From NCBI GenBank assembly GCA_008632985.1, contig QPGO01000295.1, positions 50,794 to 70,793 on the forward strand: 20,000 nt of DNA. The letters run 5' to 3'. A model generated the notes under the pieces. It saw nothing but the letters and a program-made list of their open reading frames with translations, did no database searches and had not been told where the DNA came from. Below are positions 1-20,000 of this stretch, in pieces (positions within the stretch are counted from its first letter, which is position 1; every line of letters begins with the position of its first letter). The position numbers and the translations under genes were made by a program. This stretch comes from Psammoneis japonica. Its lineage: Eukaryota.

Positions 1-130
1 CTTCTGTTTTTGTTGGCAATCATTCATGCATTCATTGCTTTGCAATCTTGCTGTGGAGCTTGTGTGCAGAACTCCGAGGGCCCAATGTCACAAACAGCCC
101 CACCCAGCTGCCGGCAGGACTGGAGCCGTC
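1..130 (-). mobile_element. Degenerate terminal fragment of the GAC...GTC MITE family (truncated by window start)
   Basis: 51-130 (ctgtggagcttgtgtgcagaactccgagggcccaatgtcac...cccacccag...ggactggagccgtc) resembles the MITE ends at 5983-6052 and 10471-10541 (ctgcggagctcgcacgcagaactctgcgggcccaatgtcacacggagtcccacccaggactggaacccgtc). Confidence 0.7.
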
Positions 131-540: not shown

Positions 541-3374
541 TCAAAAGACCACGGTCACGTCAGGTGAACAGGTCGAACCACCCGCATCACACACTGTGTA
601 AACGTAGCTCGCGCCTCCTTTTTGGCCAGTGTTGTCCATGTAAAATCCATCATTTTGGGTGGTTGTGACCAATGCACTATTTCGATAGATTTCAACATTG
701 CTTGTGGTAGCACCAGAGAAAGTTAAGTCACAGACGTTGAATCCTTTTTCCTTGCGGGTCGTGATATTCAGGGTAATTGGGCCTCCTGTAGGTGGGGCGG
801 GGACAACTACCTGGGCAACGTTGGACCATGCAGAATTTCCATCTGTATTGTAGGCTCTCACGCGATAGTCATACGTAGCGGAAGGCAAAACGTCAAAGTC
901 CACCGAAGAAGCGGTCACGGTCGTGGCGCTGGGGACCCAGGTCGTTCCACCATCCTCGCTACGTTCAACTTCAAAACCCAACTCATCTATAGAGTTGTCG
1001 TTCCAGGTGAGCTGCACTTCGGTGCTCTCTGGTGCCACTGCCACCAAGTTGGACGGAGCTGATGGTGGACTGCCACCGCCAGTACTCACGAAAGCCTTGA
1101 TGAAAAGCTGGTCAACGTAGACAGTGTCAAGAGTCCGCTCTCCCTGGACACGATTAGCATCAAGTACTCGCACTCTTACATCGCTGACACCAGACCCCGA
1201 AATAAGTTTCGTGTAGGTGCTTGCGGAATTGCTGTTTACGACAAACAATCTTGAAAAGCTGTTTCCTCCATCCAGGGAGACGTCAAAATTGAAAGCTTCT
1301 TCGCCTTGGTGCCACGCTGTGGCAGTTACGGTGGCATGATCCCATCCGTTTGGAAGGCTGAAATACCATTCATGAGACAATCGGGAAATACGACGACTAG
1401 GATTGCCACTAGATTCTTCTTCACGGATGGATTCAGCATTGCCATCTGCGGCATCAAGGCGCGCGAGAGAACCAGTCACCGTTCCAAAACTGTTGGTCTC
1501 GGTCGAAGGGAACACTTCAACATTATCACTCGTTGTGGCAGACACGGTGGGCGATGGGCTTGTAGAGCTTAGTCCTTTTTGAGCTGTAACGTTGTAGGAG
1601 TACTCCGTTGCCAACTGGAGATCAGTGTCCGTGAACGTCGTTTCAGAGACCTGCCAGCTTCCTCCACTCAACCTCTCAACAACATAGGAGTCCGCTCCAT
1701 CAATTTCCCCCCAATTTAGCCGAATTTCACTTCCAGAAAGGGCCGCTGCCGTCACAGAGCCCATTGCCGGCGCTGTAAGTGTTGCTTGGCCAACGTTTGA
1801 ATATTCAGAGGAACCACCGCCATTGACGGCACGAACACGGTAAGAGTTGGTCGTCCATGGCGCTGTAATGTCGCTGAAAGAGGTGACATCACTTGCAAGA
1901 GACTCGATTTCCTCCCATGGACCCTGACCAATGTATCGCTCCAGCCTGAAGGTCTCTTCATTGGAGGAGTTATCTTGCCAGGAAATTAAAATTTCGTTTG
2001 CGCCGACGGTGGTGGCCTCCAAGTTCGAAGGTGCATTCGGGGCGGGAACAGTCACCGAAGCTCGAAACGCGGCCGTGATGGCCATGGTGTTGCGGATGCT
2101 TTCAGCATTGTTGGCAGTTTCGGTACCAGCTACCGCGCCTTCGTAGGTAAGGTTAGGACTGGAAAACAAATTCTGGCGAGTTGCCCCGGTGCAGCCGTAG
2201 GCCATGATAGTGCGAAAGTAGGGGGGAGGGAGACTGCCATCGTTACATACACGGTAACCGTAGGAATAAGGATATGCGGCACTTCCCCCGTTTTCGATGT
2301 TATGGGTAGAACCTTATTTATAAATGAAGCAATGAAAACGGGATGAGAAAATGGGAGAGAATGAGACAATGGAAAAATAATGAACGTACCTTGATTGTGG
2401 CCGATTTCGTGGGTGAAGGTCAATCCGGAAATGCAACTTGAAAATGTCACGCTGAAGGCATAAGGAGCAAAGTCTGAGCTATCACTCGTCATGACATAAG
2501 CAATTCCACAATAGTTATTGTCTTCCGATATCATGGCGACAAGATCTGCACCATATTGATCCCTAACGGAGTGCACTTCATCCATAAAGCCATCGCCGGG
2601 AGTTCTCAAGCGACTGAGAGTGAGACCCATGTCACCTGTTTCTGTATAGCCGACCTCATACATGTACACAAGATTCAGCTCGAGGTTGATTTGACTGTTG
2701 ATATAGCCTTGGTTTGCAAGTTGGATAGCTTCCACGATCTTAGCTTCAATTCCCGCGATGCCACCATACCTGGTTCGGCTGGCTGGCGTGTATACCACCA
2801 TAATGTCTTGTACTGTGTTCCAGAGTGACTTGCTCCCTCCGTGTGAATCCGAAGTGTCAAGACTGGTCTGCTCGCTGATGGTGTCTCCGTCGGTTGCTCC
2901 ACGGAGGAGCCTGCGAGAAGCGGGCGGGAACAGTTCCTTCGTTGGAGGAAGCTTGTCTTCGTCAATCTGCGCAAAGATTGCCGTTCCACCCTGTTCCGAC
3001 GAAATCTCGAATATCTCAGAGACGCCGTAAACGATGGAACCGGAAATTGCTCCTTTGTGGAAGCTAAAGGAGGCCACACTGTTAGGAAAGCCGACGACCT
3101 GACCCATCCAGGTGTGTTCGCCGCGCTTGCCAATTACGGTGCGGTCCTGGCGAAGAGTCAAGGGGGCACTGCCATCTTCGAAGAGATCAACGAGGATAGT
3201 AGCGGCGTTGAGACTTCCTCGATTCAAGCGAATCTGGTCGACGTGTCCTGGGACGTGATACGGAGAGGCCTTCGAGGGCGCCGGCATTCGGGAGCTGAAG
3301 AGCGGAACGGCGTCCTTATTGTTTGCCGCTGCCGACCCTAGCAACAAGGCAAAGGCAAAGACACGGGGGAGCAT
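541..3374 (-). CDS. Secreted M12B/reprolysin-like (metzincin) zinc metalloprotease with fibronectin type III repeats; exons 3374-2390 and 2312-541, 918 aa
   Basis: Signal peptide MLPRVFAFALLLGSAAA, prodomain with RRLLR, and reprolysin-like core (DIMVVYT, RDQYGADLV, YCGIAY). Splicing 2389-2313 joins the two listed ORFs in frame (985+1772 nt) and restores HEIGHNQGSTH (HExxHxxGxxH) and the Met-turn TIMAY. FN3 repeats follow (APSNL..WQDNS..YRVRAVN..GSSEYS; APSNL..WNDNS..YRVRAYN). Confidence 0.92.
2313..2389 (-). other. 77-bp phase-1 GT-AG spliceosomal intron
   Basis: Minus strand reads CAAG|GTACGT...AAATAAG|GTTCT. It is pyrimidine-rich, and its removal restores the frame and the zinc-binding motif. 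Confidence 0.9.
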
Positions 3375-3800
3375 CGTTTTGCTTGAATAAGATCAAAAGT
3401 TGGATCAAGAAGACACGATGGGAGGAGAAAGGTGATGTTGTTTTTTATGGGCTTCACGCCGTTTCTACCAGGAGAAATCGGATGTAAAAAATGAGGTCAT
3501 TGATGGCTGGCATTTTGTATGTTCTGAGAGACGTAGAATGTACTGTACGTGCAACATGGAACATAGAACTTGGTCATGGTCATAAATGAATGAATATTTC
3601 ATATGAACGGTCATTCCGTTTACAGCATTAGATTTATGCTGCACCGCACCGTCCGCGAATTTTTATAAGTCATGCGTATTCATACAATTACAACGGAAAT
3701 TTTGGCCTGCGTGATTTGTAGTTCGTAACGGTTATCCGTTGAATTTAGTCTTGTTTGGCAAAGAACACCTTTTACGTATGTTTTAAGTCGTTGGGGCTGG

Positions 3801-3922
3801 TGATGACTTATGATGACTCTATGATAACTTATGATTACTTTTGATGACTAATGATTACTTATGATTACTTGTGGTTACTTATGATTCCTTTTGATTACTT
3901 ATGATTACTTATATGATTACTT
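3801..3922. repeat. ~10-bp minisatellite (TGATTACTTA / TGATGACTTA)n, block 1
   Basis: About 12 tandem imperfect units read directly. Confidence 0.9.
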
Positions 3923-4019
3923 TAAAAAGTCGAGTGTGTCTGTCTTGTGCAAAAAATATCATGTTAACGGTCAGATTTAAAGGGCTGTTGTGTCAGTTTG
4001 TCTGTGGACATTTGTCTTT

Positions 4020-4144
4020 ATTACTTACGGTTACTTGTGATTATTTATGATTACTCATGATTAATTATGATGACTTATGATGACTTTTGATTACTTGTGA
4101 TTACTTTTCATCACTCATTATTACTTTTGATTACTTTTGATTAC
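4020..4144. repeat. ~10-bp minisatellite (TGATTACTTW)n, block 2
   Basis: About 12 tandem imperfect units, same consensus as block 1. Confidence 0.88.
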
Positions 4145-4266
4145 AAATGATAAGTTAACGTCTTTCTGCGACCAACTCTCGATTGACATTTAACGATTAA
4201 GGGTGGGAAATCCCTTGTGTTTTTGACATGTGAATGCAAACACATGAAAAATAACTGACGTTTTAA

Positions 4267-4661
4267 GGCGGGTCATCCCCCACTTTTTTTAGCTCGAATT
4301 TGGCCGAACAGCTCGTGATTTGCATGATTTTTCTTGAATTTCACCGCGCTTCACCGTGGTGAAAACATCAAGCCACAAGTCTGTGACGGAGGTGGGCCGT
4401 GCGTCAACTTTCATTTGTTTTGTGCTTGTTGTGTGTCTGGGGTCGCACACACATCAAATGTTTGCGCACGGACCGCTGCATTTTTGGACTTGTGTCGACA
4501 TTGCCGTCATCATCGTGCTTCGATCACAGTGTCTGATGTTCTCATTTTCATGCACGATCGGGGGTGAATGTGGGCAATTTTTGCATTCAAAAACAAACAC
4601 TGCAAATGTCCTCATTCAAATGCCACGACAATTTCTGGGACAAATGCGGGGATGACCCACC
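4267..4661. mobile_element. Kolobok-like MITE copy 1 (~395 bp)
   Basis: TTAA|GGCGGGTCATCCCC ... GGGGATGACCCACC|TTGA. GG..CC termini with a TTAA target fit Kolobok better than piggyBac. No transposase. Confidence 0.8.
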
Positions 4662-4665
4662 TTGA

Positions 4666-5062
4666 GGCGGGTCACCCCCATGTTTGTCCCAGAATTGCCG
4701 TTGTTGCATTTGTGTGAGATTTTTTGCAGTGCTTGTTTTTGAATGCAACAATTGTTCATGGTCACACCTGATCGCGCACGAAAATGAGAACCATCAACAC
4801 CACGATCGAAGCACGACGATGACAACAATCATCGACATTTCTCAAAAACGCAGCGTGCCGTCTGTCAACTTTTCATGCATGCACAATCTTTGATGCACAA
4901 CAAACACAAAACAAATGAGAGTTGGCAGACGGACCACCTCCGTCACAGACTTGTGGCTTGTTGTTTTCACCACAGTGAAGCACGGTGAAATTCAGGAAAA
5001 ATCATGCAAAATGCGAGCTGTTCGACCAAATTCGAGCTAAAAAAAGTGGCGACTGACCCGCC
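4666..5062. mobile_element. Kolobok-like MITE copy 2 (~397 bp), inverted relative to copy 1
   Basis: TTGA|GGCGGGTCACCCCC ... GACTGACCCGCC|TTGA. The body is the reverse complement of 4267-4661 (e.g. agctcgaatttggccgaacagctcg / cgagctgttcgaccaaattcgagct). Confidence 0.8.
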
Positions 5063-5492
5063 TTGATCATTTGTGATGCAAATGTGGAAAAAACACACCG
5101 ACGCGTTCTGCGCTCACCGTGCAAACAGCACGACAATGGACGAAATGCCATTCGTTCTCGAAAACTGACAGGGGTGGCCTCCAACTTTTTTCACAGTGTG
5201 TCGCATTTGACATGGTCAACAAACTCATGAAGAAAGTTGGAGGCCTCCAAACCTGCACTGCGTTCAATGGACGGCATTTCGGCCATTGTCGTGTTGTTTG
5301 CACGGTGAGCTCAGCATTCGCTCTCCAGCCTTTTGAACATTTTTCCACAAATTGCACGCATTTGTGAAAAACACTGTCTTGTTTCAGACATTTTTTGTTT
5401 GAAATTTCTAAAATTCACAAAAAAAGAGGGTTCCCAGCCTCAAAACCATTGGCAATTTGGTGAGCACAGAATGTGTCTTGTCGCTGAAGCAG

Positions 5493-5595
5493 TGCTGACC
5501 TTCACAACATTTCTGTGCATCAGTCCGTTGGGTTCACATGAAAAATGTTAACCTTCATAACATTTTTGTGCATTGGTCCGTTGGGTTCACATGAA
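5493..5595. repeat. 53-bp tandem duplication
   Basis: accttcacaacatttctgtgcatcagtccgttgggttcacatgaa at 5498 versus accttcataacatttttgtgcattggtccgttgggttcacatgaa at 5551. Confidence 0.85.
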
Positions 5596-5656
5596 TGCAT
5601 GGGGAAATAAAAATTCGCTGACGGTGCAGGCATCCATCATTGTGTTCATGATGTTG

Positions 5657-6052
5657 GACGCGTTCCAGCCCCAGGTGGGAGCTCGCAGCACTGACATGTG
5701 ACACAAACAATTTTTGTCATCCGTCGCATGTTTTGCACGTGCATTTCTGCGTGTGATGTTTAAAAAAAATTGTCCAGACTCACTGTTTTGTGAAGCCCCA
5801 GACACTTCACACAACAAATTTGCAGAAACGATGATGCGCCAGTTGCATTCTTCAATGTCTGAAGAGTGCAACTGGCCAAGCAAAAAGCGATGTGCTTCAA
5901 TCATGGGCAAGTTTGTGCATTTGCAAAATTGCCTCATTTTCTGTTGGCGATCATTGGCACTTTAACTGCCATGTGCTTTTGCTGCGGAGCTCGCACGTGG
6001 AATTCTGCGGGCCCAATGTCACACGGATTCCCACCTGGGTCTGGAACACGTC
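5657..6052 (-). mobile_element. GAC...GTC MITE, subfamily with a different internal sequence (396 bp), 4-bp TSD GTTG
   Basis: GTTG|GACGCGTTCCAGCCCCAGGTGGGA ... TCCCACCTGGGTCTGGAACACGTC|GTTG. Confidence 0.88.
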
Positions 6053-6425
6053 GTTGTGCCAGCAGGGTCCTGTTGTTTTTATGGGCTTGAGGCCGGTGTT
6101 GTGCTGAGAGACGTGGATTCTGTCTGCAGCACTGGCACAGAGCATGATCAAGGTCAATGATGAATGGACATTTCTTGGCAGTCACGGTCTTCAATGAATG
6201 GACATTTCCTGTGAACGATCATTCTGCAAGGTCAAACAAGACAAAGACTTTAGAGTTGGCAAAAATTGTGAGCGAAAGACCAAGGCAACCAGGTTGCTGT
6301 CAGCGAAGCCCGCTGCAATGGCTCTTGTCATGTCTCACAGAATCATCAATGCTTTTCTGCGCAAGCACACATTGGCAGTTTTTGTGAGGAATTCCACGGG
6401 TTTTTTGCACCAAGCAGCCATCACC

Positions 6426-8420
6426 ATGACGACCCCTCCTCCACCGCAGGCTGGCCCCGCCGGTGCTCCTCTTCCGGATCTTCCTCCCATTGTGGATCGC
6501 ACTCCATCAACCCCAACAAGAGCTGGCTCAAAAAAGCTCAACGTGATTGGCCCAAAAGAAATTGCCACCCGATTTGAGTTGACATTGGCAGAGGACAATG
6601 CCCCTGCAGTCCCAGCTGAGGGTCACACCAACACCCTCCATGCCCTTCAGCAAAAGGTGTCCCAAGATCCGTTGATGCACAAAATCTCCATCATGTCGAA
6701 TCGTGGTGTTGATGTCCCCAATGTCAACATCATTGAATGGAGTTCTGGACTGACGCACTTGCAACATTTTGTTTTACACCAAGTCGGAGGCACCCGCCGC
6801 CGCCCTCCTGCGTGCATCATCACTCACTGCATCTGCACTGCCTTGGCTCTTGCCAAAATCAGGAACACACCCTTTGCACACAAAGTCCTTAAAGACAATG
6901 GCTTTCACATGAAATGTCATGAATGTGACAAGGACGCGTTCCAGCCCTAGGTGGGACTCCGTGTGACATTGGGCCCCGTAGAATTCTACGTGCGAGCTCC
7001 GTAGTACGAGAATTTAATTAATGGACACATTTATCTTCAACATCAAATAAACGGCCAAGTTTGTGGTACAATTATGCCTCTTACCACTCGACGTTTTTGC
7101 AACTTCGCCTGCCCTACGCGATTCTTAAGACATTGTAGAATCGCGCTGTAACAAAAAATGTCAAAAGTTGTTGGACGGATCGCTCAATAAGTGTACCGTA
7201 AAATGACACAAAATATCGAAAAAATCACGTAGAAATCTACGTGCGCGACATACGACGAGACTCAAAAAACTATCGATGTCACAGTTCAGTAGTACGAGGT
7301 CCCACCTAGACCTGGAATCTTGTGCTGCTCTTCTCCTGGATTTTGTGCCTGAGCACTGCCCTGCGGACATTGTTCAGAAATGACTTGTGTCAATTCCACC
7401 CCCCTGCAGTTGCTCCAAGGTTCCTTTCCGGTTGATTGTTCAATCGGCATCTTCCCCAATTGACAAGGACATCAAATCGACTCATTGTGCCATTGAGACC
7501 CCACGAGACTGCGCCAAGGACATGATTGCAGCCCTGATGGAAGCATTGGAGGATCGTCCATTGGCGGCAATTTTCACCTGCTGGCAGCACACTCAACCAG
7601 AACAATTCGACAAAGCAGCGCGCAAGCAACGAAAAACCTCCGCAAAAATTCACGTGATCCCATTGCTTCGCTGCAAGGACAGGATGCATTTTTGTGTGTC
7701 CAGTGCAACTTCCATGATTCCAGGGGCAGTGGACGTTGTCCCCTCAAAGAAGAAAATCTCAGTCCCACGTTGCAACATTCTCGTGGACAAACAGTGCTTT
7801 CGAAAAGTCAAAGAGCACATTGCAGAAAACCTCTCAGGCTGGACGAACCATCTTCCAGAAAACGAATTGCCGTTCATTCACCAACCTCGCCCAACAAATC
7901 CTGGTGTCAACAACGATGTCTCGGACACTGTTCAGTCAATTGCCTTGGCTGGCATCCAAAGCTGGAAGTCTCTGGGACATTTCTGACATTTCTCCTTCTG
8001 ACTCACAAGCTCCTGCTGAATCCGCAACACAGCCAGCACCTCCACTGGTTCCGCGAAATGTTGGGATTGTTGGCGGCTTTCAGATGTTTGCACAAGCCCT
8101 GGAAAGTTCCACCAGTGTGGCAGTCCCCACAGCAACCCCCACTTTGGAGTTGACATCTCATGCCAACAAAACAGCTGAGCTTGAACAGATGGTGCTTCAA
8201 CATCATCAGGAGCAGGATCATTGGTCAGAGCTGCTAGAATGACAACATCAAGCATCTCTTGTGCAGCTGGCTTCCAAGTTTCAAGATTTGATTCAGGAAA
8301 CCATTTCACCCATGATGACTCCGGGAGCTTCATCTCCTCAGAGGAAGAAACCTGCACTCTCAGCCCCAGCAGGCTCTTCATCTCACCATCCTCCCAACGA
8401 CACTGCCGCGGATGACGTGG
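6426..8420 (+). pseudogene. Putative LINE ORF1 remnant (Pro-rich N-terminus), split by the MITE at 6933-7317
   Basis: Long + strand frames MTTPPPPQAG... (6426-6932) and 7387-7986 lie directly upstream of the endonuclease domain. The identity is inferred from position only. Confidence 0.55.
6933..7317 (+). mobile_element. GAC...GTC MITE, TpA-retaining copy; last ~6 bp of the right TIR and the TSD are missing
   Basis: GACGCGTTCCAGCCCTAGGTGGGAC ... GTCCCACCTAGACCTGGAA; colinear with 13990-14380. Confidence 0.9.
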
Positions 8421-10149
8421 ATCAAGAAGACTCAGTTTTTCCTGAGGCAGGGCCAGTCATCCAACCTGCCCATTTCCCAAGATGCATGCACCTGTCGTGC
8501 TGTTCAGTCTTTCTTCGAGAAAGCACGGCATCACACCCAGGGGTGATGCCCCTTTGGTGGCAGTTGGTCCCGCTGCCCAGCAGTTGACCCAGATGTTGTC
8601 AGGCAGAAGTTTTGCACCTCCCTCCAGCACTGTTGATCACACTGCTCTGGCACAGAATGACCTGATTGGTGATCCGCTGGGACCCAAATCACCAGACCAA
8701 ACATGTTTGCACGCGTTTGATGCAAATGGATGTGCTTGTGACCTGCAAGGCAGAGACTTCAACACCTGTTCTCAAGTCACTGCGGAAACACAGGCAGACA
8801 CAGTTGGAATTTCCGAAACTTGTTTGGGCACAATGCAATGCAAAGTTCGACAGAGTTGCACAAACACAGTTTGCCAATCTTTCCAACACGGCCATCTGAC
8901 ATTGTCATCCTCCAAGACTGCCTTTTCCATCCCTTGCAAACCTGGTGGCACCGCCTTGCTTTCATGCAATTCTTTGTCTTCACAATGCCATGCACAATGT
9001 GAAGATCTTCTCGGGAGATGGTCGATCCAAATTTTTGATGGACGCCATGGACGGCAAGTTGTGTTTGTGTCGTGTCATCAAGTGTGCTTTGGCTCTTCTG
9101 TTGCAGGTGAAACAACAGCTTGCGCAAAACAGGAAGCATTGCTTTGACGACAAGGACGCGCAAATCCCGACACAAGATGATCATTTTGCACGGATCTGAC
9201 CCGCATCCTAGAGCGGTTTCTCGATGATCCAGACCAAGAGGTTGCGCTGTTTGGAGATTTTGGCACTGACAATGACACCCTTGCTTCCATGGCGCAACGG
9301 TTCAACATGTCGGACGTGATGTGTTGCCATCAGGAAGATCTTGAATTTTCCATGCATGTGAGAGGATCTTGTCAGCTGGGCTGCATTCCAGCAACTCCAG
9401 GAGCTTTGGCTGCATCAAGAAGGTGTGGGTGCAAATCATTTGGTTGTCACACATCCTTGGATCATTGAGCTCATTTTGTCAGCTTTGACACTGTGGCATT
9501 GTTTGGCAACCCTGCCGTCAACTTGCCTCGTGCCGAACATCGAGGCTTGCAAGCAAATTCTCCGAAACACGCAACTGCACATTTGGAGACAATGGCTCCC
9601 CTCCTGCAAAGTTGCAGTGTCAAGGAGCAAACCAAAGCACTGGCACAGTCTGAGACGCCAAATCACAGACTCACAGAGAGACTCAGCCGCAACAGTCTGC
9701 AGCTCTCATTGTCTTCTGCGAAGCATTGTTGACGTCACAACAAACCAGAATGGTCAGCAAAATTGGCCAGTCTCTGCAGACAGATTTTGGTGTTGTCCAG
9801 GATGATGTCCATGTTTTGCGCCAAGGTTGACATGGCACCAATGATTCCATGTGCTGAGTTTGATCTCAAAGAGTCCTTTGTTCTTCCAACCACCTTACAA
9901 GAATGTGCCACAGCTCTACAAAAGGCTCAGTCAGAGTGCCGTCAGGTGGCAAGAGAGAGTCAGAAACACCAAGATGAAGAATGAGACGCCCGCATCGCCA
10001 AACTTGAATTAGACTGCACCAAACAGTCAAAAGCCAAAGCACAAATCCTGCGCAATCAACGCTGTGCAGAAGAAACTGAGCGGGCATTTAAGAAAACCAA
10101 CGCTTGCAAAAAGACGGAAGGAGCCAGTGCACAAACCATTCAAATCCCT

Positions 10150-10541
10150 GACGCGTTCCAGCTCTGGGTGGGACCTTGCACCACTGAACTGTGACATTGA
10201 CAGTTTTTTTGGATCGCGCCGCATGTCGCGCACGTAGAATTGCACAAGACTTTTGTGAAATTTTGTGTCATTTTGTGGTGCACTTGTTGAGCGATCCGTC
10301 CAACAACTTTTGACATTTTTTTGTTACAGCGCGATTCTGCAATGTCTTAAGAATTGCGCAGGGCAGGCACATTTGCAAAAATGTCAAGTGGCAAGAGGCA
10401 CAATTGCACCACAAACTTGGCCGTTTGTTTGATGTTGAAGATGAACACATCCGTTGATTAAATTCTTGCACTGCGGAGCTCGCACGCAGAACTCTGCGGG
10501 CCCAATGTCACACGGAGTCCCACCCAGGACTGGAACCCGTC
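10150..10541 (-). mobile_element. GAC...GTC MITE (392 bp), 4-bp TSD CCCT, reverse orientation
   Basis: CCCT|GACGCGTTCCAG ... CTGGAACCCGTC|CCCT. Excision restores the LINE frame IQIPEDPRDNPKTCENW. Confidence 0.92.
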
Positions 10542-13173
10542 CCCTGAAGACCCCCGAGACAATCCCAAAACGTGCGAGAATTGGGTGACGACAGATGCCC
10601 CAGACAACATTGAATCTGCGCTCCAGCACTGCAAAAAAACCAACGACACTTCGGACAGGCACATGGCACTCCTCTCACTGTCCCACCCTTGTCTGTTGAC
10701 CTTGGATGTGAAGGAGACACTGTCATGGCCGATTTAATCCTAGACGGAGAACATGAAACTGGACACCTGAACCGTGCCACTTTGCTGCTGACACAGCATC
10801 TTCGAAGAAGGACACCACCAACAGCTCCAAATTCTCTCACTCCTGGGGCTCTCCACTTGAAGACAAAAATGTGGTCAGAGTCAACGTCTGCTTCATTGAA
10901 GTCAGGGATTCATCTGGGACACTGGAAGGCCCTGTGCGCTCCACATTCCCATGCAAATGATTGTGACAATGACGGGAATCCATCCGAGCAGAAAGAATTG
11001 TTGGACTCGGTCCAGCAATCCCTTGTGGCAATGCAACTTAACCTGATCAACTGCGCTTTAAAGCAGGGTTGCTCACGCAAATGATGGAAAGACATTGTGA
11101 ATGCAACGATCTTCAAAGAACCAGGCAACAACAAAATGCACCGATTGTGCATGATTCACATCTGCGAGGCGGATTTCCAACTGATTGCAAGTGTCAAGTG
11201 GCGCAAATTAGCCCAGCATGTGGATCACCGCTGAATGTGCAACCCAGGGATTTGCAGATGTTGCTCCTTCCTTTCCGCCCAAACGCCTGTTTTTCTCAAA
11301 AACTTGATGCTGGAGATGTCACGTGCTTCCCGGAACACTTTGCTCACCAGTGACGATGACTGCACTTCTTGCTGTGACAGGAACATCCCAGCAACAGTGG
11401 GTTTGCGTGCAAAGAGTGATGGCATGCACAAGAGAGTGGTCAAAGTCAATGTGGCAATGTCACATCATGCATGTCATTGGCTGTGCACTCTGTCAGGAAT
11501 CACCCAAAAAAGTTGTTCCCATTCCTCTGAGTTCCCGTTGCATGGAAAAGGACAAGGCAGCGGAAATTCTCCTTGGTGCTGGAACACTCTGCGCAGTGGA
11601 CTGTTTGACATCTTTGATGCTGAAGCTGTTGGTTTGTTCTTCAAAACTCTGGACGGACAGTTCCACATCCAAGCATGCAACAGGGGTCATGTTGATGACA
11701 CTTCCAAGCAGGTGAATGATTTCAGAGCCAGCCCTCAGCCCTCCACGCTCAAGTTGTCCCAGTCTCTCCAATCGGACAGCCGGTTGTGGTGTGACTTGTT
11801 GGACACAGCAGGACATGAACTTGAGTTGCTGAAGTGTTCCTTCCATGCCACAGAATGGGACTTTACAGAGTGCGGAGAACCGCACATGTGACCCTGCCAT
11901 GACAACATTGAGGTGGAGATCTTTTCCACTGTCCAAACCACTTCCAGGTGCAGCCAGCAATTGTCAGCACACACACCTCACAAAACCCTGGGACACTGCA
12001 TGACTCCAATCGGTGCACAGAAAACTCAATCGAAGAAACCCCAACACAAGAGCAATGCTGTCTCCTTGTTTCTCAGGTTGTGCCCGCTGGACAGGACAGA
12101 AACATGGCAACAATGCCGCGCTTGTCACCTCTCCTTGATGACACGTGTTCTGGCTGGCTCAAATTTTCTTCCAAAAGAGCTCCAACAGGTGCAACAAAAG
12201 GCCATGCCGACGATTTTTGCCAAATGTGGTTACAACAGAAACACCAAAAGGCTCGTTCTCTACAGACCACAGTCGCTGGGAGGCGGAGGTTTTCGATTGC
12301 TTGATGTTGAACAAGGAGTGGCCCAACTTCAACAACTGTTGAAGCACTCAAGAGGAGTTGCCCACCTGCAACTCTCGCCACAGGCAGTGACGGGTCAGTT
12401 GGGGAGGGAGCCACCTTCGGATGGACGATTGCCTCAGATGGTGCGCCATCAGTGAATTGTGCAGGACCCGTTTTTGGAAAGACGCCATCTTTGCATCGCG
12501 CAGAGGCCTGTGGCATCCTTTCAATTGCACGGTTCATTTTTTGATTGTGTGAATGTTGTTGGATTTTGGTTCCTTTGGACGCTGCAATTCATTGTGACAA
12601 CAAGGCTTTGGTTGACGGTCTTTCCCGGTTGACATCTGCCCCACCAGCGATTGACCCAGACGAAGAAGCTCACGCTCCACACAATTTTCATGTTCGCTGC
12701 AACGGCGCTGATGCCATTTCTCCAGATTGGGACGTTCTGAACAAAATTCTTCACACCCAGCAAACTCTGAAGCAGCTTTTGGATTCAGAGGATCTGTTCT
12801 CCCTCCAGTCTCATGGGTGAAAGGACATCAAGGCAGGCATTCTCCAGTCCATGCCTTGCCCACAAACGCCAGAGTCAACATCCGCGCTGACAGATTGGCA
12901 GGAGCATGTCAGGGTCACTGCCTGTGTGACAAGTCAAGCATCTGCCTCATTGCAACTCTCACCTCAAAACAGAGGGAGGCACCGCAACATCGAGCCACAA
13001 GAAACAGATCAGACATGCAGCCACCGCCCCCCAACTGATCGACTGCATCATTGAACGCAGCCAGTGGACCCCTCCAGTGATGGAGCAAGTCAATTGGAAT
13101 GCCCGTGCAATCCTGGTGAAGTGCCATTCAAAGAAGCATGTCAACGCGGCAAAACTGGTGCATGACTTGCCAC

Positions 13174-13771
13174 CACCCACGAACAAAATTGCTCGCAGAT
13201 GCGATCAAGTTCGTCCTCACCAGTGCATTGCGTGCGATCATCTGATGGAAGACAGGGACCACATTCTTTGATGTCCCAACGACAAACAGTGGAGGAGGAA
13301 ATTCTTGCAAGGTCTGCACAGATGCTGCAACAAGGCAGACACAATGCCTGTTCTTTGTGACTTTTCATTGGATGTGCTGCAGGCTTGGTTTGATGAGGAA
13401 ATCACTCACCTCAAAAATGGGGGTTGCAGATGCAAGGAGTTGTGGAGAGCTCAGCCAGACATTGGATGGCAACACCCACGAACAAAATTGCTCACAGATG
13501 CAATCAAGTTCATCCTCACCAGTGCATTGCGTGCGATCATCTGATGGAAGACAGGGACCACATTCTTTGATGTCCCAGTGACAAACAGCGGAGGAGGAAA
13601 TTCTTGCAAGGTCTGCACAGATGCTGCAACAAGGCAGACACAGTGCCTGTTCTTTGTGACTTTTCATTGGATGTGCTGCAGGCTTGGTTTGATGAGGAAA
13701 TCACTCACCTCAAAAACAGGGGTTGCAGATGCAAGGAGTTGTGGAGAGCTCAACCAGACATTGGATGGCAA
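13174..13771 (+). repeat. 299-bp tandem duplication inside LINE ORF2 (13174-13472 / 13473-13771)
   Basis: Near-identical copies both start cacccacgaacaaaattgctc; the duplication is frameshifting. Confidence 0.93.
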
Positions 13772-13989
13772 CAGATCTTCAACGGCAGATGCTCGCTTGT
13801 GTGGAACCTCCTGCAATCTGGTCATCTTCATGATTCAGGCATTTTGCGTCAATGTCAAGAGGAAAACAAACAGCCACCAGATTGGACGGTCCAGCTGGGA
13901 TCCTGCACATGGAGAAGCTGGTGGGAGCTGTGGGAAGAGCATGGCAAGCCAGCTCACGGACACAATGTTGAGTCTTGAAAGTCATCCCA

Positions 13990-14380
13990 GACGCGCTCCA
14001 GCCCTGGGCGGGACTCCGTGCGACATTGGGCCCGCAGAATTCTGCGTGCGAGCTCCGCAGTGCGAGAATTTTAATTGATGGACACATTTGTCTTCAACAT
14101 CAAACAAACGGCCAAGTTTGTGGTGCAATTGTGCCTCTCACCAATTGACGTTTTTGCAACTTCGCCTGCCCTGCGCGGTTCTTAAGACATTGCAGAATCG
14201 CGCTGCAACAAAAAATGTCAAAAGTTGTTGGACGGATCGCTCAACAAGTGCACCGTAAAATGACACAAAATGTCAAAAAAATCATGCAGAAATCTGTGTG
14301 TGCGACATGCGACGAGACTCAAAAAACTGTCGATGTCACAGCTCAGCAGTGCGAGGTCCCACCTGGACCTGGAGCACGTC
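13990..14380 (+). mobile_element. GAC...GTC MITE (391 bp), 4-bp TSD CCCA
   Basis: CCCA|GACGCGCTCCAGCCCTGGGCGGGAC ... GTCCCACCTGGACCTGGAGCACGTC|CCCA. Confidence 0.92.
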
Positions 14381-14656
14381 CCCAAAAGACAGGGGAGTGT
14401 TGCTAGATTCAGTCGAGAAACGCCGTTCATTTTCTGCAACAAGGGCTCAAAACTGGATCTCAGCGGTCCTCCCAAGACTCAAAAAAAGCTTGAAAGAAGC
14501 CAAACGCCTGGCCAAAAGAGGTGCCTGCGCCATCTTCAGCCATTTCCGTCAGGCGCCCCCCTTCCGGGGGCGCCAAATCCAGCCAATCACACACAATTTC
14601 TGCCGCATCCTTTGCAGGGTATGCTGGAAGTGTGGGTCAGCCGGCGCTGGTGTTGC

Positions 14657-14727
14657 TTGGGGCCAGGGCCAGGGTCAGGGTTGGGGTTGGGGCTGGGGTT
14701 GGGGTCAAGGTTTGGGGTTGGGGTTAG
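14657..14727 (+). repeat. Degenerate interstitial telomeric repeat (~11 hexamers)
   Basis: ttgggg ccaggg ccaggg tcaggg ttgggg ttgggg ctgggg ttgggg tcaagg tttgggg ttgggg ttag; these are transition variants of TTAGGG in the same orientation as the terminal array. Confidence 0.8.
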
Positions 14728-15412
14728 CATGTGCGTTTTTTTGGCTCGGTTTTGGGTTGGGGCAAGAGTCTGTGCATCGTCCGTCAATGTTTTCAACTGC
14801 AAAATGGCGACGCACGACGCACAGACTGCCCATTTGGGGCCTTTGCTGGACCCATTTCGGTTGCCAGGTGATGAACAGACTGCGCCAATTTGGGGCCAAT
14901 GCTGGACCCATTTCGACCTGCAACTGGAGTTGCCAATGACCCCTGGGATTGGACACTGGTTTGCTGTCCACAACTGCAGTGTCATTTTGACAAGTCAGCC
15001 AAAACACCAGGCGCACAAACACAGACGAATTTCAACACATGCAGCGATTGTGGTTTTGCACAATTGATGTTTCAGCCTGTCTTTCTCTTGCTCTGATTTC
15101 TCGCAGAGGAACAGGGCGTGGCGGCAACAACCCTCCTCATGTGTGGTGCATTTGGGATGGGAGGGTTTGGGTTTGGGTTGTGAGGTGGCAGGAAACGCTT
15201 CCGGTTGAATGACAGACCCCACCTGATCGATGCCAAGTGGCCACGGTTGAAGGACAGACCATGCCAAATCGACACGCACCCGCATCTATTTCTCATCTCC
15301 ACAGTCGAACTCAGGACAAGTCATTGCACACATCGAATCAGTCAAGCATCGTTTTCACATGTTGTGGCCAACAGCGTGACTGCAAGCAACACCTGAAACA
15401 AGCAACTGAGTG

Positions 15413-18400
15413 CTAAAATTGCCACAAACCCAAAAACAAAAAGTGGACAATGAATGTTGCGGGATTCACAGCAATGCAGCAATTTTGAGACTGTGATGCT
15501 CCCCGCACACATTTTTGTGGTTGATGCATGTGCCCAACTGCCCAAACTTCATTTTTTTTGTTTTTTGTTCCGCGGGCAGTTGCACGTTTTTTTTTCTTTG
15601 ACAAATTCGTTTGGATGGGTGGGGGTTGTTCTACCGTCATTCTTCCTGTCGGTGGTGTGTCCTTCTTTGGCTTGCTGGCGTTCTTCATTTTTTCCATTTC
15701 CTTTCTCTTTGCCTCCATTGCCGTCGCTCTTGCAGCCGCCTTCCCCCCCCTTTTCTTGTCTGCCTCAATTCTCTTCCTCCTTGCCTGTTCCTTTCTTTCC
15801 TCCATTTCGGCCAGCGCCTTCGCCCTGCGTTTCTTTGCGTCTGTTTTTGTCTCACGATCCGGAGTTCTCCGAAAAACTCTTTTGCTCCCACACTTGTTTG
15901 GTCGTTCAGACACTTTTGACGGGGTTTTCATCTTGGCTGAAACTTTGGCAGCAGCCACAGCACTTGAAGGGTCGTCATCATCTGCTGCGTCAATCTCCGA
16001 TTCAGAGGATGATTCAGAGGATGAGGAGACCAGATCCCTTCTCCGCTGTCTTTTCCTTGCAGCGGAACGTGGCTCTTGGTTGATTCGATTCAGGACGGGG
16101 CAACTGCTGTCGCTGTCACTCCCGCTTGCAAGGGGCTCGTCTTTCGAATCTGCGTCACTCCCAGCAAAATCCATGTTTTGTTCGTCCTCTTCCACCTGTT
16201 GCTCAGGGTTTGCAGCAGACGGTTCCTCTTCATCTGCTTTGTCATTTCCTTGCCCCCCCCTGTTGATGGTCATTCTCCTCTGACATTCCGTCTCTGTCAG
16301 AAGTCGCTTTGTCATCTGGCGACTGGCCGGTGCCTCCATTGCCCCCCTCATCTGAACGATCTTTCCTTTCTTCTTCATCTTGAGGGTTTGTGCCATCTCC
16401 GTCTTTGTCTGGGGTGTGATCTCCATCTTTGTCATTGTCATCATTGTCGTTGTTGTCGCTTGATTCCTCCTCATCCTTCTGCTCTGGTGCCTCCTCCTCC
16501 TTCTCCTCTTCCTCATCCGCTTCCTTGTCATGTTCCACTGTGGGCTTGCCGGCTGCATCATCGCCCACTTGTTGTGTGCTCCCATCTTGGTGCCGCAGGT
16601 CTGCCAAGGTGGTGTCCATCATCCCTTCGTCGTCGTCTCCCCCTTGTTGTCCCTCCGCTGTGACCTCTGCTCGCGCCGCTTCGTCCTTCTTTGCCTGCTT
16701 TTTTTTCTTTTTCGCCTTCCTTTTCTTGCTCTCTTCCTTCATTCTGTCTTCCAAAATCGTCTTTCTCATTTTGTCCTCGTTCTCCAGTCTTTCCTTCTTG
16801 AATCCATTGCGCATTGTGTTGTCGTGCGCCCATGGCATTGCCTTCTGCTTGCGCCACTTCGTCCTTCTTTGCCTGCTTCATTTTCTTTTTCGCCCTCCTT
16901 TTCTCGCTCTCTTCCTTCATTCTGTCTTCCAAAATCGTCTTTCTCATTTTGTCCTCGTTCTCCAGTCTTTCCTTCTTGAATCCATTGCGCATTGTGTTGT
17001 CACACGCCCATGGCATTGCCTTGCTGAAGTTCTTGTGAATCAAGTCGCACTCGTGCTCAAATCGTTTCTTTGTCTCTGTGTCTTCATCAAAAAGAGCTTG
17101 GAAATTCCGGCAGTTGACAACCCTTGGAGATGTGCCACGCGTTTGGTTCATCGCGTCTTCGTAGTTTTTGCAGGTGACTGAGAATGTCTGCTCCGATTCC
17201 TGCTCTTCAGGTGCAAAAGTGTCCTCCTCGTCTTCGCTGTTCAATCCTCTGAAGTGAATCTGTTCCTTCACATCCTTCACTGTCAGATCAGAGTTGCTTT
17301 GCAGGTGGCAGATGGCTGTTCCAAGAGCCGCCTGTGTTTGACAGGTCCTAACGCACTCTTGTTGCAACTTCATGAAAGCCTCCTGTCGGCTGTCATCTGT
17401 GTCCAGGGTGTTGTCCAATGTGCCGCTGATGGACTTGCACATCTCGGAATTCTTGTTCCACTTCATTCTCTTGCGTTTTCTTTTCGCGGCAGGTTTTGCA
17501 GCAGCTTCTTCGTCGGGCTCGTCCTCATCGTCCCATTTCCTTTTCTTGCTCTGTTTCGATTTCCCCACCACCTCAATGAGTCTCTTGTTTGGTTCTTCCA
17601 ACCATTTCTTCAGCCTTTGGTGGTTGAGCTCGACTCCGTCTGAAACTGCCACATCGTGCACATCGCTCATGCCTGCCATGCAAATCTCCTCAATCAATTC
17701 CTTCAAGGTTAACTTGGCATGCTTTTCATTTCCTGCATGGAAACAATCACCAAACAGGTTAGACGGGGACCGCAAAACAGACACATTGGTGTTCCGATCC
17801 TGCAAACAATCCGATGCACAGACAGACAACACCAAATTGGTGCAATGGCGTGTCGATTCCGCAGAATCGAAGCCGATGAGGACAGACCGTGCGACACAGA
17901 GATGACGTGGCATCGATTTCTTGGTCACACTCACCGCTGCCTTCTCGACTGGATCGATTTCAAATTTGGGAACAAAGTCTTCGGTGGAGGCTGTTTTCTG
18001 GTTTGCCTCGTTGGCCACAATGTTCCCTGGCTCTTCCAGGTGTTCGATCAGAGAGAGCAGTTTGAGGCTCTTCTTCTTTGTCAACCATTCGCAAATGAAC
18101 GCAACCATCTGCGGCATGTTTGTGACTTTCTCTGGACAGTTTGTGTCATCGCGAAACATCAATTCATGAAAGGGCTCCTCGCTCAATGCCTCCTGTTCAT
18201 CATTGTCGAGACCAGACGTTTCTTCCGGAAGCATTGCCTCGAAAAGAAACGTTTTGTGATTTTCTACACCAGCATCCAACCAACATTTGTTGACGGGGAT
18301 CACATCTCCGAAGTGACAAAATGCCTCCATTGTTGCCTTTCCGGCACCGGCCAGCATCTTTGGATGCAGGTTTTTGTCAGTCCACCTCCCTTTTCCGCAC

Positions 18401-19013
18401 TGCACCATTTTTGTCATCGTCAAACCAAGGATGACCTGTGTTTTGATGCAAACATCAAAGACACACAGTGCAGCTTTGGGCAAACCGCTCTTGGAAACAT
18501 CGGTTTCGTTGAGATTTGCAAAAAATTCCCTTCAAAAAGAAAAGAAAAAAATTTGGTCATCAGGCACACGACCAAACAATTCGCGGTTTTCACTTGTCAT
18601 GTGTTTCCGTTGCTCCAACACTCACCGAGTGCAATTTGCCCCTTTTCGTTCCCTGCAATGTTGCGGGAAAGGAGTGATTGAGCAAATGTCAAGCACCGTT
18701 TCTCGAGAATGAAATCATGGTGGGATCCCAAAGCAAGGAATTGTCTTGCCGTGTGTCCATCATTGTCAGCGGTTTCCGCCTTCAGGAACTCTGTTGACAG
18801 GCCCATCACCTCTCCCTGCACGTTTTCAGCCAAATTGTTCAGCACTGTGCAGTCGCGAAGGACTTTTCCATCTTCTCCTTCTCCAAATTCTGTCGCAAAC
18901 GAAAATCGCAATCCCTCCGGTGGGGTGGGTTCAGATTGGCAGGATCTTCCAATGACTTGTTTCAACATTTCAGCGGACTGGCTGTCAAAAACAAAATTCG
19001 TGAACAACATCAT
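15413..19013 (-). pseudogene. Large decayed ORF of unknown function (globular N-terminal part, K/E-rich coiled-coil-like and D/E/S-rich disordered C-terminal part); 5' end runs into the gap
   Basis: Overlapping minus-strand frames 19013-18597, 18483-16558, 16838-16242 and ~16240-15413 have protein-like composition. They are frameshifted (one break from the 178-bp duplication) and almost free of Tyr. Confidence 0.6.
16666..17021. repeat. 178-bp tandem duplication (16666-16843 / 16844-17021)
   Basis: The peptide NTMRNGFKKERLENEDKMRKTILEDRMKEES appears in two different frames. Confidence 0.93.
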
Positions 19014-19458
19014 NNNNNNNNNNNNNNNNNNNNNNNNNNNNNNNNNNNNNNNNNNNNNNNNNNNNNNNNNNNNNNNNNNNNNNNNNNNNNNNNNNNNNNN
19101 NNNNNNNNNNNNNNNNNNNNNNNNNNNNNNNNNNNNNNNNNNNNNNNNNNNNNNNNNNNNNNNNNNNNNNNNNNNNNNNNNNNNNNNNNNNNNNNNNNNN
19201 NNNNNNNNNNNNNNNNNNNNNNNNNNNNNNNNNNNNNNNNNNNNNNNNNNNNNNNNNNNNNNNNNNNNNNNNNNNNNNNNNNNNNNNNNNNNNNNNNNNN
19301 NNNNNNNNNNNNNNNNNNNNNNNNNNNNNNNNNNNNNNNNNNNNNNNNNNNNNNNNNNNNNNNNNNNNNNNNNNNNNNNNNNNNNNNNNNNNNNNNNNNN
19401 NNNNNNNNNNNNNNNNNNNNNNNNNNNNNNNNNNNNNNNNNNNNNNNNNNNNNNNNNN
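19014..19458. other. Assembly gap (445 N)
   Basis: Run of N. Confidence 1.
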
Positions 19459-19669
19459 GGGGGGTTAGGGTTAGGGGTTAGGGTTAGGGTTAGGGTAGGG
19501 TTAGGTTAGGGTTAGGGTAGGGTTAGGGTTAGGGTTAGGGTTAGGGTTAGGGTTAGGGTTAGGTTAGGGTTAGGGTTAGGTTAGGGTTAGGGTTAGGGTT
19601 AGGGTTAGGGTTAGGGTTAGGGTTAGGGTTAGGGTTAGGGTAGGGTTAGGGTTAGGGTTAGGGTTAGGG

Positions 19670-19710
<41 letters not shown>

Positions 19711-19840
19711 GGTTAGGGTTAGGGTTAGGGTTAGGGTTAGGGTTAGGGGTTAGGGTTAGGGTTAGGTTAGGGTTAGGGTTAGGGTTAGGTTAGGGTTAGG
19801 GTTAGGTTGGTTAGGGTTAGGGGGTTAGGGTTAGGGTGGG

Positions 19841-19874
<34 letters not shown>

Positions 19875-19959
19875 GGTTAGGTTAGGGTTAGGGTTAGGGT
19901 TAGGGTTAGGGTTAGGGTTAGGGTTAGGGTTAGGGTTAGGGTTAGGGTTAGGGTTAGGG

Positions 19960-20000
<41 letters not shown>
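19459..20000 (+). repeat. Telomeric array (TTAGGG)n
   Basis: About 540 bp of tandem TTAGGG with occasional 1-nt indels; G-rich strand runs toward the window end. Confidence 0.98.

Follow-up and report, generated by a model that had tools for sequence, protein, structure and literature searches.

Related mutational systems

A hypermutator that changes A:T to G:C specifically at TpA has so far been reported once, for Bigelowiella natans in a 2026 preprint (Mettrop et al., bioRxiv 10.64898/2026.01.13.699255). The present work concerns a stretch of 20,000 nucleotides (nt) from Psammoneis japonica (assembly GCA_008632985.1, contig QPGO01000295.1, positions 50,794 to 70,793), called the window from here on, which is a chromosome end whose last part has lost nearly all its TpA. 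It carries copies of a miniature inverted-repeat transposable element (MITE), and the comparison of a copy rich in TpA with two copies that have lost it, together with the DNA around them, shows that adenines followed by a pyrimidine (TAY) were hit more readily than those followed by a purine (TAR).

According to the main text of the preprint, 231 of the 302 nuclear mutations found in B. natans mutation-accumulation lines fell in two integrated viral regions; 230 of these 231 were A to G or T to C, and all the GC-biased ones were on TpA. It describes 124 clusters genome-wide which are depleted in TpA and enriched in CpA and TpG, and proposes an ADAT2-like protein as a candidate. A preference for flanking bases is not stated in that main text, where the words "trinucleotide", "context" and "flanking" occur zero times each; its Fig. 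2B and Table S2 may bear on the point. The TpA mutator as such is already published with this preprint, while the rule of TAY over TAR appears to be new.

As described there, the process in B. natans is like the one recorded in the window in that it consists of transitions from TpA to TpG or CpA only, leaves a depletion of TpA with an enrichment of CpA and TpG, and is regional and apparently episodic. The domain, with an observed/expected ratio (rho) of 0.045 for TA and 1.56 for CA plus TG, passes the thresholds given for the B. natans clusters (at most 0.43 and at least 1.52, respectively). It is unlike them in being a finished footprint, with about 96% of the expected TA gone, and in lying in a subtelomere, among MITEs, old telomere repeats and a gene remnant, not in a viral insert. 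B. natans is described as having canonical TTAGGG telomeres (PMC13746701), with which the telomere of the window is compatible.

Repeat-induced point mutation (RIP), too, is a dinucleotide-specific transition hypermutation of mobile elements which leaves a compositional footprint. It is opposite in chemistry and polarity, since RIP makes TpA from CpA and lowers GC (as summarised in bioRxiv 10.64898/2026.01.13.699255), whereas here TpA is destroyed, GC rises and the mutated copies are TA-free. Unlike in RIP, duplication alone is not the trigger, since one copy of an abundant family, copy A below, is untouched.

In the TadA target the edited A is preceded by U33, and in most eukaryotic ADAT2/3 tRNA targets a purine follows A34. 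Conversion of A to inosine by such enzymes would give A to G, and the T-A-C of the window matches at -1 and +1 the target 5'-ACG listed for TadA/ADAT2 (Table 1, PMC10661471); their natural substrate is an RNA hairpin loop, unlike the DNA here. For the amphioxus ADAT2 acting on DNA, the preference given is GAA for A and TCG for C (PMC10354150). ADAR also changes A to G and prefers U or T 5' of the edited A, but the 3' preference listed for it is G (5'UAG; Table 1, PMC10661471), which is the disfavoured class here (TAG, TAA), and it acts on double-stranded RNA, so that fixation in DNA would need retro-copying. A footprint of ADAR type does not fit: besides the disfavoured TAG and TAA, TG and CA products alternate, with no one-strand runs of A to G. 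Decay of CpG by deamination of 5-methylcytosine resembles the loss of TpA in that a palindromic dinucleotide goes to TG or CA on either strand, and the two co-occur in the domain. CpG decay differs in concerning the C of CpG, in being spontaneous and far slower, and it cannot remove TpA.

Loss of TpA in the MITE copies and in the domain around them

The window is a eukaryotic chromosome end with a gene on the left and terminal (TTAGGG)n repeats on the right. The regions on which the comparison depends are the following.

541..3374, minus strand: gene region encoding a reprolysin-like peptidyl-Asp metalloendopeptidase with fibronectin-III domains; TA rho about 0.6; control.
3501..4250: non-coding and rich in TA, containing a 10-bp satellite; TA rho 0.7-0.9; not hypermutated; control.
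4251..19012: TA-free domain, extending up to the telomere.
6933..7317, plus strand: MITE copy A, 27 TA, rho 0.91, GC 0.44; a TpA island within TA-free DNA.
10150..10542, minus strand: MITE copy C, 4 TA; hypermutated, with greater divergence; target-site duplication (TSD) AGGG; a third lineage for polarity.
13990..14380, plus strand: MITE copy B, hypermutated, 3 TA, rho 0.13, GC 0.50; terminal inverted repeats (TIRs) of about 25 nt, TSD CCCA (4 bp).

With the MITEs excluded, positions 4251-19010 contain 37 TA in 13,040 nt, against 827 expected, which gives the rho values quoted above. Unlike TpA, neither ApT (0.8-0.9) nor ApA (1.2-1.4) is depleted in the domain. In 250-nt bins the edge of the domain near 4250 is sharp, and there are sharp edges around copy A too. 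The two control regions together make up about 4 kb with 181 TA and a joint TA rho of 0.66. Among the contents of the domain are MITEs, a gene remnant and a stranded telomere array. The neighbouring gene, the satellite and copy A of the MITE escaped.

The element is classed as a MITE on account of its non-coding sequence of about 390 nt, its TIRs of about 25 nt and the perfect 4-bp TSDs of copies B, C and D (copy D is described below); five copies or part-copies are found in the window. In copy A the 3' TIR is 6 nt short at its end, and a TSD is missing.

A reading made earlier from the sequence alone had drawn the TAY preference from the alignment of copies A and B, and its counts were reproduced. 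Of the 27 TA of copy A, 24 are altered in copy B, all to TG or CA, and 20 of the 24 have TAY on the mutated strand (the mutated A is followed by C in 14 cases, T in 6, A in 2 and G in 2). Where only one strand offers TAY, the change was on that strand at 14 of 15 changed sites (binomial p=0.001), and the three TAs surviving in B are in TTAA, TTAA and GTAA. Further differences between A and B, beyond those of the sequence-only reading, are 5 A/T transitions outside TpA, 5 CpG transitions, 1 transversion and 2 indels. All the changes at A/T positions in copy B are transitions, with no A/T transversions, and transitions are found at none of the 113 C/G positions outside CpG. The sequence-only reading had made its claim depend on A to G being rarer outside TA, and this it clearly is: TA sites were changed in 89% of cases (24/27) and other A/T positions in 3.1% (5/160). 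Copy B in this way carries the same type of footprint as reported for B. natans, with A:T to G:C transitions nearly confined to TpA. The TG and CA products alternate along copy B, so each site was decided locally, with no strand-wide runs.

The few A to G changes outside TpA have the same 3' neighbour. They are at NAY in 5 of 5 cases in copy B and in 6 of 7 in copy C, NAY and NAR being available in a ratio of 81:79; two of the changes in copy C are at old TATA sites, and without them NAY accounts for 9 of 10 (p=0.02). In copy C the one-sided sites are a weaker witness, with 11 fitting and 3 violating the TAY rule. When B and C are pooled and shared products are counted once, 16 sites fit and 4 violate (p=0.012). 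The TAY rule is not absolute.

Direction of the change

Copies A and B alone give no direction, and the classical reading would be the opposite, RIP-like one. The third copy, the depth in a sequencing run and a telomere tract bear out the assumption of the sequence-only reading that TA was lost and not gained. At six sites with TA in copy A the two other copies have opposite products, one having TG and the other CA, which implies a TA ancestor that was hit independently. At a further place ACACA in A and B stands against GTGTG in C; here comparison was possible with X1, the sequencing run containing 0.65 of the words of the window (listed together with two runs of the same sample), in which more than half of the depth at 7026 and 7028 reads T (ATATA). 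A few TAs are accordingly gone even from copy A, and hits in parallel are common. At least four more swaps between TG and CA are found in unique DNA between the window and the X1 contigs (40 of the 420 differing places being listed). Of the ten swaps, six between B and C and four between the window and X1, five are at two-sided sites or at sites with TAY on neither strand, a number too small for use as a test of the classes.

The telomere tract lies within the domain.

14657..14730, plus strand: decayed interstitial telomere array, with 8 units of TTGGGG type, 4 units of CAGGG type and one TTAG left.

Its ancestor is known to be (TTAGGG)n, and so the polarity is fixed. These repeats are of the YTAR class and were mutated to both products in the old array, so that tTAg is slow but not immune.

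The TAY preference outside the MITE

As copies B and C are not independent witnesses, signals outside the MITE were examined. A change from RTAR to RCAR is a hit on the strand with TAY, and one from RTAR to RTGR a hit on the strand with TAR. As RCAR and RTGR share the same purine/pyrimidine pattern, any bias of purine or pyrimidine tracts cancels in their ratio. RCAR and RTGR number 802 and 540 in the TA-free DNA and 136 and 177 in the controls (odds ratio 1.93, p=2e-7). The ratio RCAR/RTGR is 1.45-2.08 in all seven blocks of 7401-19010, and at most 1.22 in every TA-bearing part of the window. Calculated from the gains of tetramers over the control, the base after the mutated A is C in 52%, T in 31%, G in 9% and A in 7%, close to the corresponding values of copy B (C/T/G/A 58/25/8/8%).

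The TAs that survive give the same picture. The sequence-only reading had described residual TAs as often YTAR, and this class makes up 15 of 25 in 7401-19010. In the whole domain it accounts for 22 of 37, and in the controls for 30 of 181 (p=3e-7). Of the YTAR sites an estimated fraction of 0.225 survives, of the one-sided sites 0.038 and of the RTAY sites 0.008, which fits an additive model of hits per strand with kY about 2.4-2.5 and kR about 0.75, that is TAY about 3-fold faster. Under this model about 77% correct strand choice is expected, in line with the 80-93% seen. The preference for TAY over TAR is in this way confirmed in the MITE and, independently, window-wide; it amounts to about 3-5 fold, with C at least as favoured as T, and both much more so than G and A, which are about equal, and it appears to be new.

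Proposed process and points against it

In the process that we propose, the last 15 kb or so before the telomere would have been swept by a TpA-specific A:T to G:C transition activity turning TA into TG or CA, with an A before C or T hit about 3-5 times more readily than an A before A or G. At RTAR and YTAY the product would be predictable (RTAR to RCAR); RTAY would be lost first, and YTAR (TTAA, CTAG, TTAG) would persist longest. The activity would act on a chromosomal domain and not on one repeat family. We are fairly confident that the sequence shows these four points jointly: TA is ancestral, changes are nearly restricted to TpA, the base 3' of the target matters, and the process is domain-wide and not directed at one repeat family.

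The agent would be an enzyme that reads sequence. The sequence-only reading had preferred an enzyme to GC-biased gene conversion; gene conversion was indeed excluded, since only TpA is lost, while an enzyme may reasonably be supposed. The signature of TadA is present, in that T at -1 is near-obligatory and the base at +1 is mostly C or T both in copy B and in the window as a whole, which we take as a resemblance only. A TadA/ADAT2-like adenine deaminase acting on the DNA of silenced chromatin, with inosine read as G, is our tentative choice for the agent, held with slightly less than even confidence.

Several observations weigh against this interpretation or limit it. The process would be of the same kind as the de novo one in B. 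natans, but the identity is by signature only. In copy C the private events, 2 fitting and 3 violating, show no preference, and B and C disagree at four one-sided sites. At RTAY sites B and C are concordant in 5 of 6 cases, the sixth being a transversion in C; this concordance suggests shared ancestry or further context, and the events are not all independent. Outside the MITE, RCAR/RTGR reaches only 1.05-1.16 in two blocks, 4251-5640 and 6060-6925. For the composition before mutation, 4 kb of satellite and coding DNA stood in, and the satellite's own variants at TA sites, 3 TG and 4 CA, show no preference, although as DNA that is not hypermutated it is uninformative. CpG decay with a flank bias could add to RCAR; by arithmetic on the counts, the loss of CpG is too small to account alone for the gain. 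The bias may belong to the enzyme or to repair, as the sequence fits both. Finally, the one ADAT2 that was assayed on DNA prefers GAA, and the analogy with the UAC target of TadA, drawn in the sequence-only reading and fitting at -1 and +1, stays an analogy.

Alternative explanations

The alternative that survives best, although we consider it unlikely, is a chemistry of thymine. Thymine-modified DNA exists in some protists, and a T in R-T-A carrying a modification such as 5-hydroxymethyluracil or a base-J-type group could pair with G and be fixed as C. The A of TAY is the T of RTA on the opposite strand, so all the context counts fit this equally and the sequence does not decide for adenine deamination; the domain moreover shows CpG decay and is probably base-modified chromatin. 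Against it, the rare events outside TpA read naturally as NAY, though equally as RTN. The authors of the B. natans preprint found an ADAT2-like candidate and favour deamination of A (bioRxiv 10.64898/2026.01.13.699255).

It is somewhat less likely still that the mutator hits all TpA equally and that hypoxanthine or the mismatch is removed better before a purine. A preference which is moderate, about 3-5 fold, and not absolute would agree with this, as would the final mutation of YTAR sites, in the old telomere repeats, to both products. The rare events outside TpA, however, have the same bias for Y at +1, and the near-absolute requirement for T at -1 looks like one recognition surface.

We regard as quite improbable that there is no real preference at +1 and that the counts arise from the shared ancestry of B and C, from internal palindromes of the MITE (CGTAG/CTACG) or from an unusual original composition of the subtelomere. 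Copies B and C do have nine one-sided products and 5 of 6 RTAY products in common, the events private to C are as given above, and the control composition comes from 4 kb only. Against it, three read-outs agree (strand choice of about 80-93%, tetramer gains with 83% Y, and additive survival of the classes), and the bias is present in all seven blocks of 7401-19010 and above 1.22 in no TA-bearing part.

GC-biased gene conversion near the telomere, or an artefact of sequencing or assembly at modified bases, has very little probability. The subtelomeric location would suit it, as would the rise of GC between copy A (0.44) and copy B (0.50). Gene conversion favours all weak-to-strong changes including transversions, whereas TpA alone is depleted, ApT and ApA are not, and copy B is without A/T transversions; the boundaries at about 4250 and around copy A are sharp. 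As to an artefact, contigs of X1 carry the same TA-free sequence, and where they cover TA-free stretches the differences range between 1 in 418 nt (8098-8515) and 13 in 545 nt. TA is read as usual by the same assembly in copy A, in the satellite and in the telomere with its 84 TTA. X1 is possibly the window's own sample, so that this agreement is supportive and not independent evidence that the TA-free sequence is real DNA and not an artefact of basecalling.

The reverse polarity, in which a RIP-like C to T change at CpA/TpG made the TAs of copy A while B and C stayed unmutated, recalls the classical fungal RIP signature of CpA to TpA in organisms that also have (TTAGGG)n telomeres and is compatible with A and B taken alone, but it is refuted by the six opposite-product sites, each of which would need two adjacent changes, and by the decayed telomere tract with its known TA ancestor; with 13 kb of surrounding TA-free DNA and most of the family depth at 7026/7028 carrying TA, it has practically no chance of being right.

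Other MITE copies and the escape of copy A

Two more members of the element family are found in the window.

1..122, minus strand: partial fifth copy, cut by the start of the window; TA-poor.
5657..6052, plus strand: related MITE D, with only the terminal regions in common; TSD GTTG.

Copy D has CA or TG at two TIR sites where copy A has TA. In the partial copy a GTAG of copy A is TCGG, both bases of TA having changed in a double hit. The three TSDs CCCA, AGGG and GTTG of copies B, C and D show no preference for TA or TTAA as target. Run X1 contains the MITE family in great abundance: the contig pieces of this run placed on the stretch number 6183, and the word depth is 1e4-1e5 in MITE bins and about 1e2 elsewhere, depth not being a copy number. 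A scan with conserved cores of the element gave no matches to further copies in the metagenome and viral contig collections. The best explanation for the escape of copy A is that it arrived once the episode was over or was locally protected; both possibilities fit the episodic, regional behaviour reported in the Mettrop et al. preprint.

Contents of the domain and of the chromosome end

The remaining parts of the domain and its distal border are the following.

16561-18531, minus strand: frame of 657 residues, an apparent gene remnant, with 1 Tyr, 21 Cys and 20 His.
19013-19457: run of 445 N between the unique sequence and the telomere repeats; the junction is unreadable.
19458..20000, plus strand: terminal (TTAGGG)n with 84 intact TTA; the tTAg context is the slowest class.

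The frame of 657 residues has two weak relatives (E about 1e-5), which are unnamed and without Pfam domains. Its residues 39-247 align with 27% identity to the start of an unnamed protein of 773 amino acids, with Met39 of the frame on Met1 of the relative, and the frame has H where the relative has Y. Judged from its sequence, it looks like a gene remnant rewritten by the loss of TA. The TA-free DNA contains 40 stop-free frames of at least 110 codons, overlapping on both strands, as the process changes stops only from TAA to TGA, removes TAA and TAG and never creates a new stop. None of the 40 long frames reaches the Pfam cut-off, and none of the seven domain frames compared with PHROG has a match. 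RNA runs are absent among the runs listed as matching the window.

CpG is also reduced in the domain, with rho(CG) 0.60 against 0.96 in the controls, and because of this decay the domain is probably base-modified chromatin; we think of cytosine-methylated chromatin as the probable form. In copies B and C, 9-18% of the CpG positions are changed, and CpGs still present in copy A have become TG or CA in B and C.

The interstitial telomere array has the same orientation as the terminal (TTAGGG)n. It suggests that the distal 4.7 kb or so were added onto an older chromosome end. At the proximal end of the domain there is a nested long inverted repeat (4265-5064; arms of 222 nt with 83% complementarity, inner arms of 130 nt with 77%), TA-free and foldback-like, which starts exactly where the TA-free domain starts. 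Two tandem duplications of two copies each lie in the domain, at 13168-13765 (299 nt, 96% identity) and at 16661-17016 (178 nt, 94% identity), the latter in a strongly pyrimidine-rich stretch with an AT skew down to -0.69.

Outside the domain, the 10-bp satellite has a unit of about TTATGATTAC and forms two blocks at 3790-4160; it is TA-rich and unmutated, though non-coding, repeated and bordering on the TA-free domain. The metalloendopeptidase region consists of two overlapping open reading frames (ORFs), 541-2205 and 2130-3374, which points to an intron or a frameshift. The proteins most similar to it are of bacterial type, with 45-48% identity, so that a bacterial-like gene is found only a few kb from a eukaryotic telomere, and the gene may be a horizontal acquisition.

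Significance

For annotation, TA-free DNA is without TAA and TAG stops, and long ORFs in such DNA are no evidence of genes. The flanking rule predicts both the product (RTAR to RCAR) and the order of loss, RTAY first, then one-sided sites and then YTAR, and is a sharper footprint for the screening of genomes than the depletion of TpA alone. It also discriminates between enzymes, pointing to a TadA-like UAC and not to the UAG of ADAR or the GAA of amphioxus ADAT2. The process came near to completion over a subtelomeric domain of 15 kb without a recognisable viral character; its borders are sharp, and one MITE in it, a later arrival or a protected copy, is untouched. This bears on how targets are chosen.

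In its fullest form, which we put forward as possible but rather doubtful, the mutator would be an adenine deaminase that naturally acts on DNA and is intrinsically specific for T-A-Y (TadA-like UAC), aimed at silenced chromatin domains and not at viruses as such. It would erase TpA throughout such domains, in transposons, decaying genes and stranded telomere repeats alike, to about 96% completion, and would strip TAA and TAG as a side effect so that dead DNA looks rich in ORFs. If this is true, the TAY rule would be the fingerprint of the enzyme, and other genomes could be screened for the same defence.

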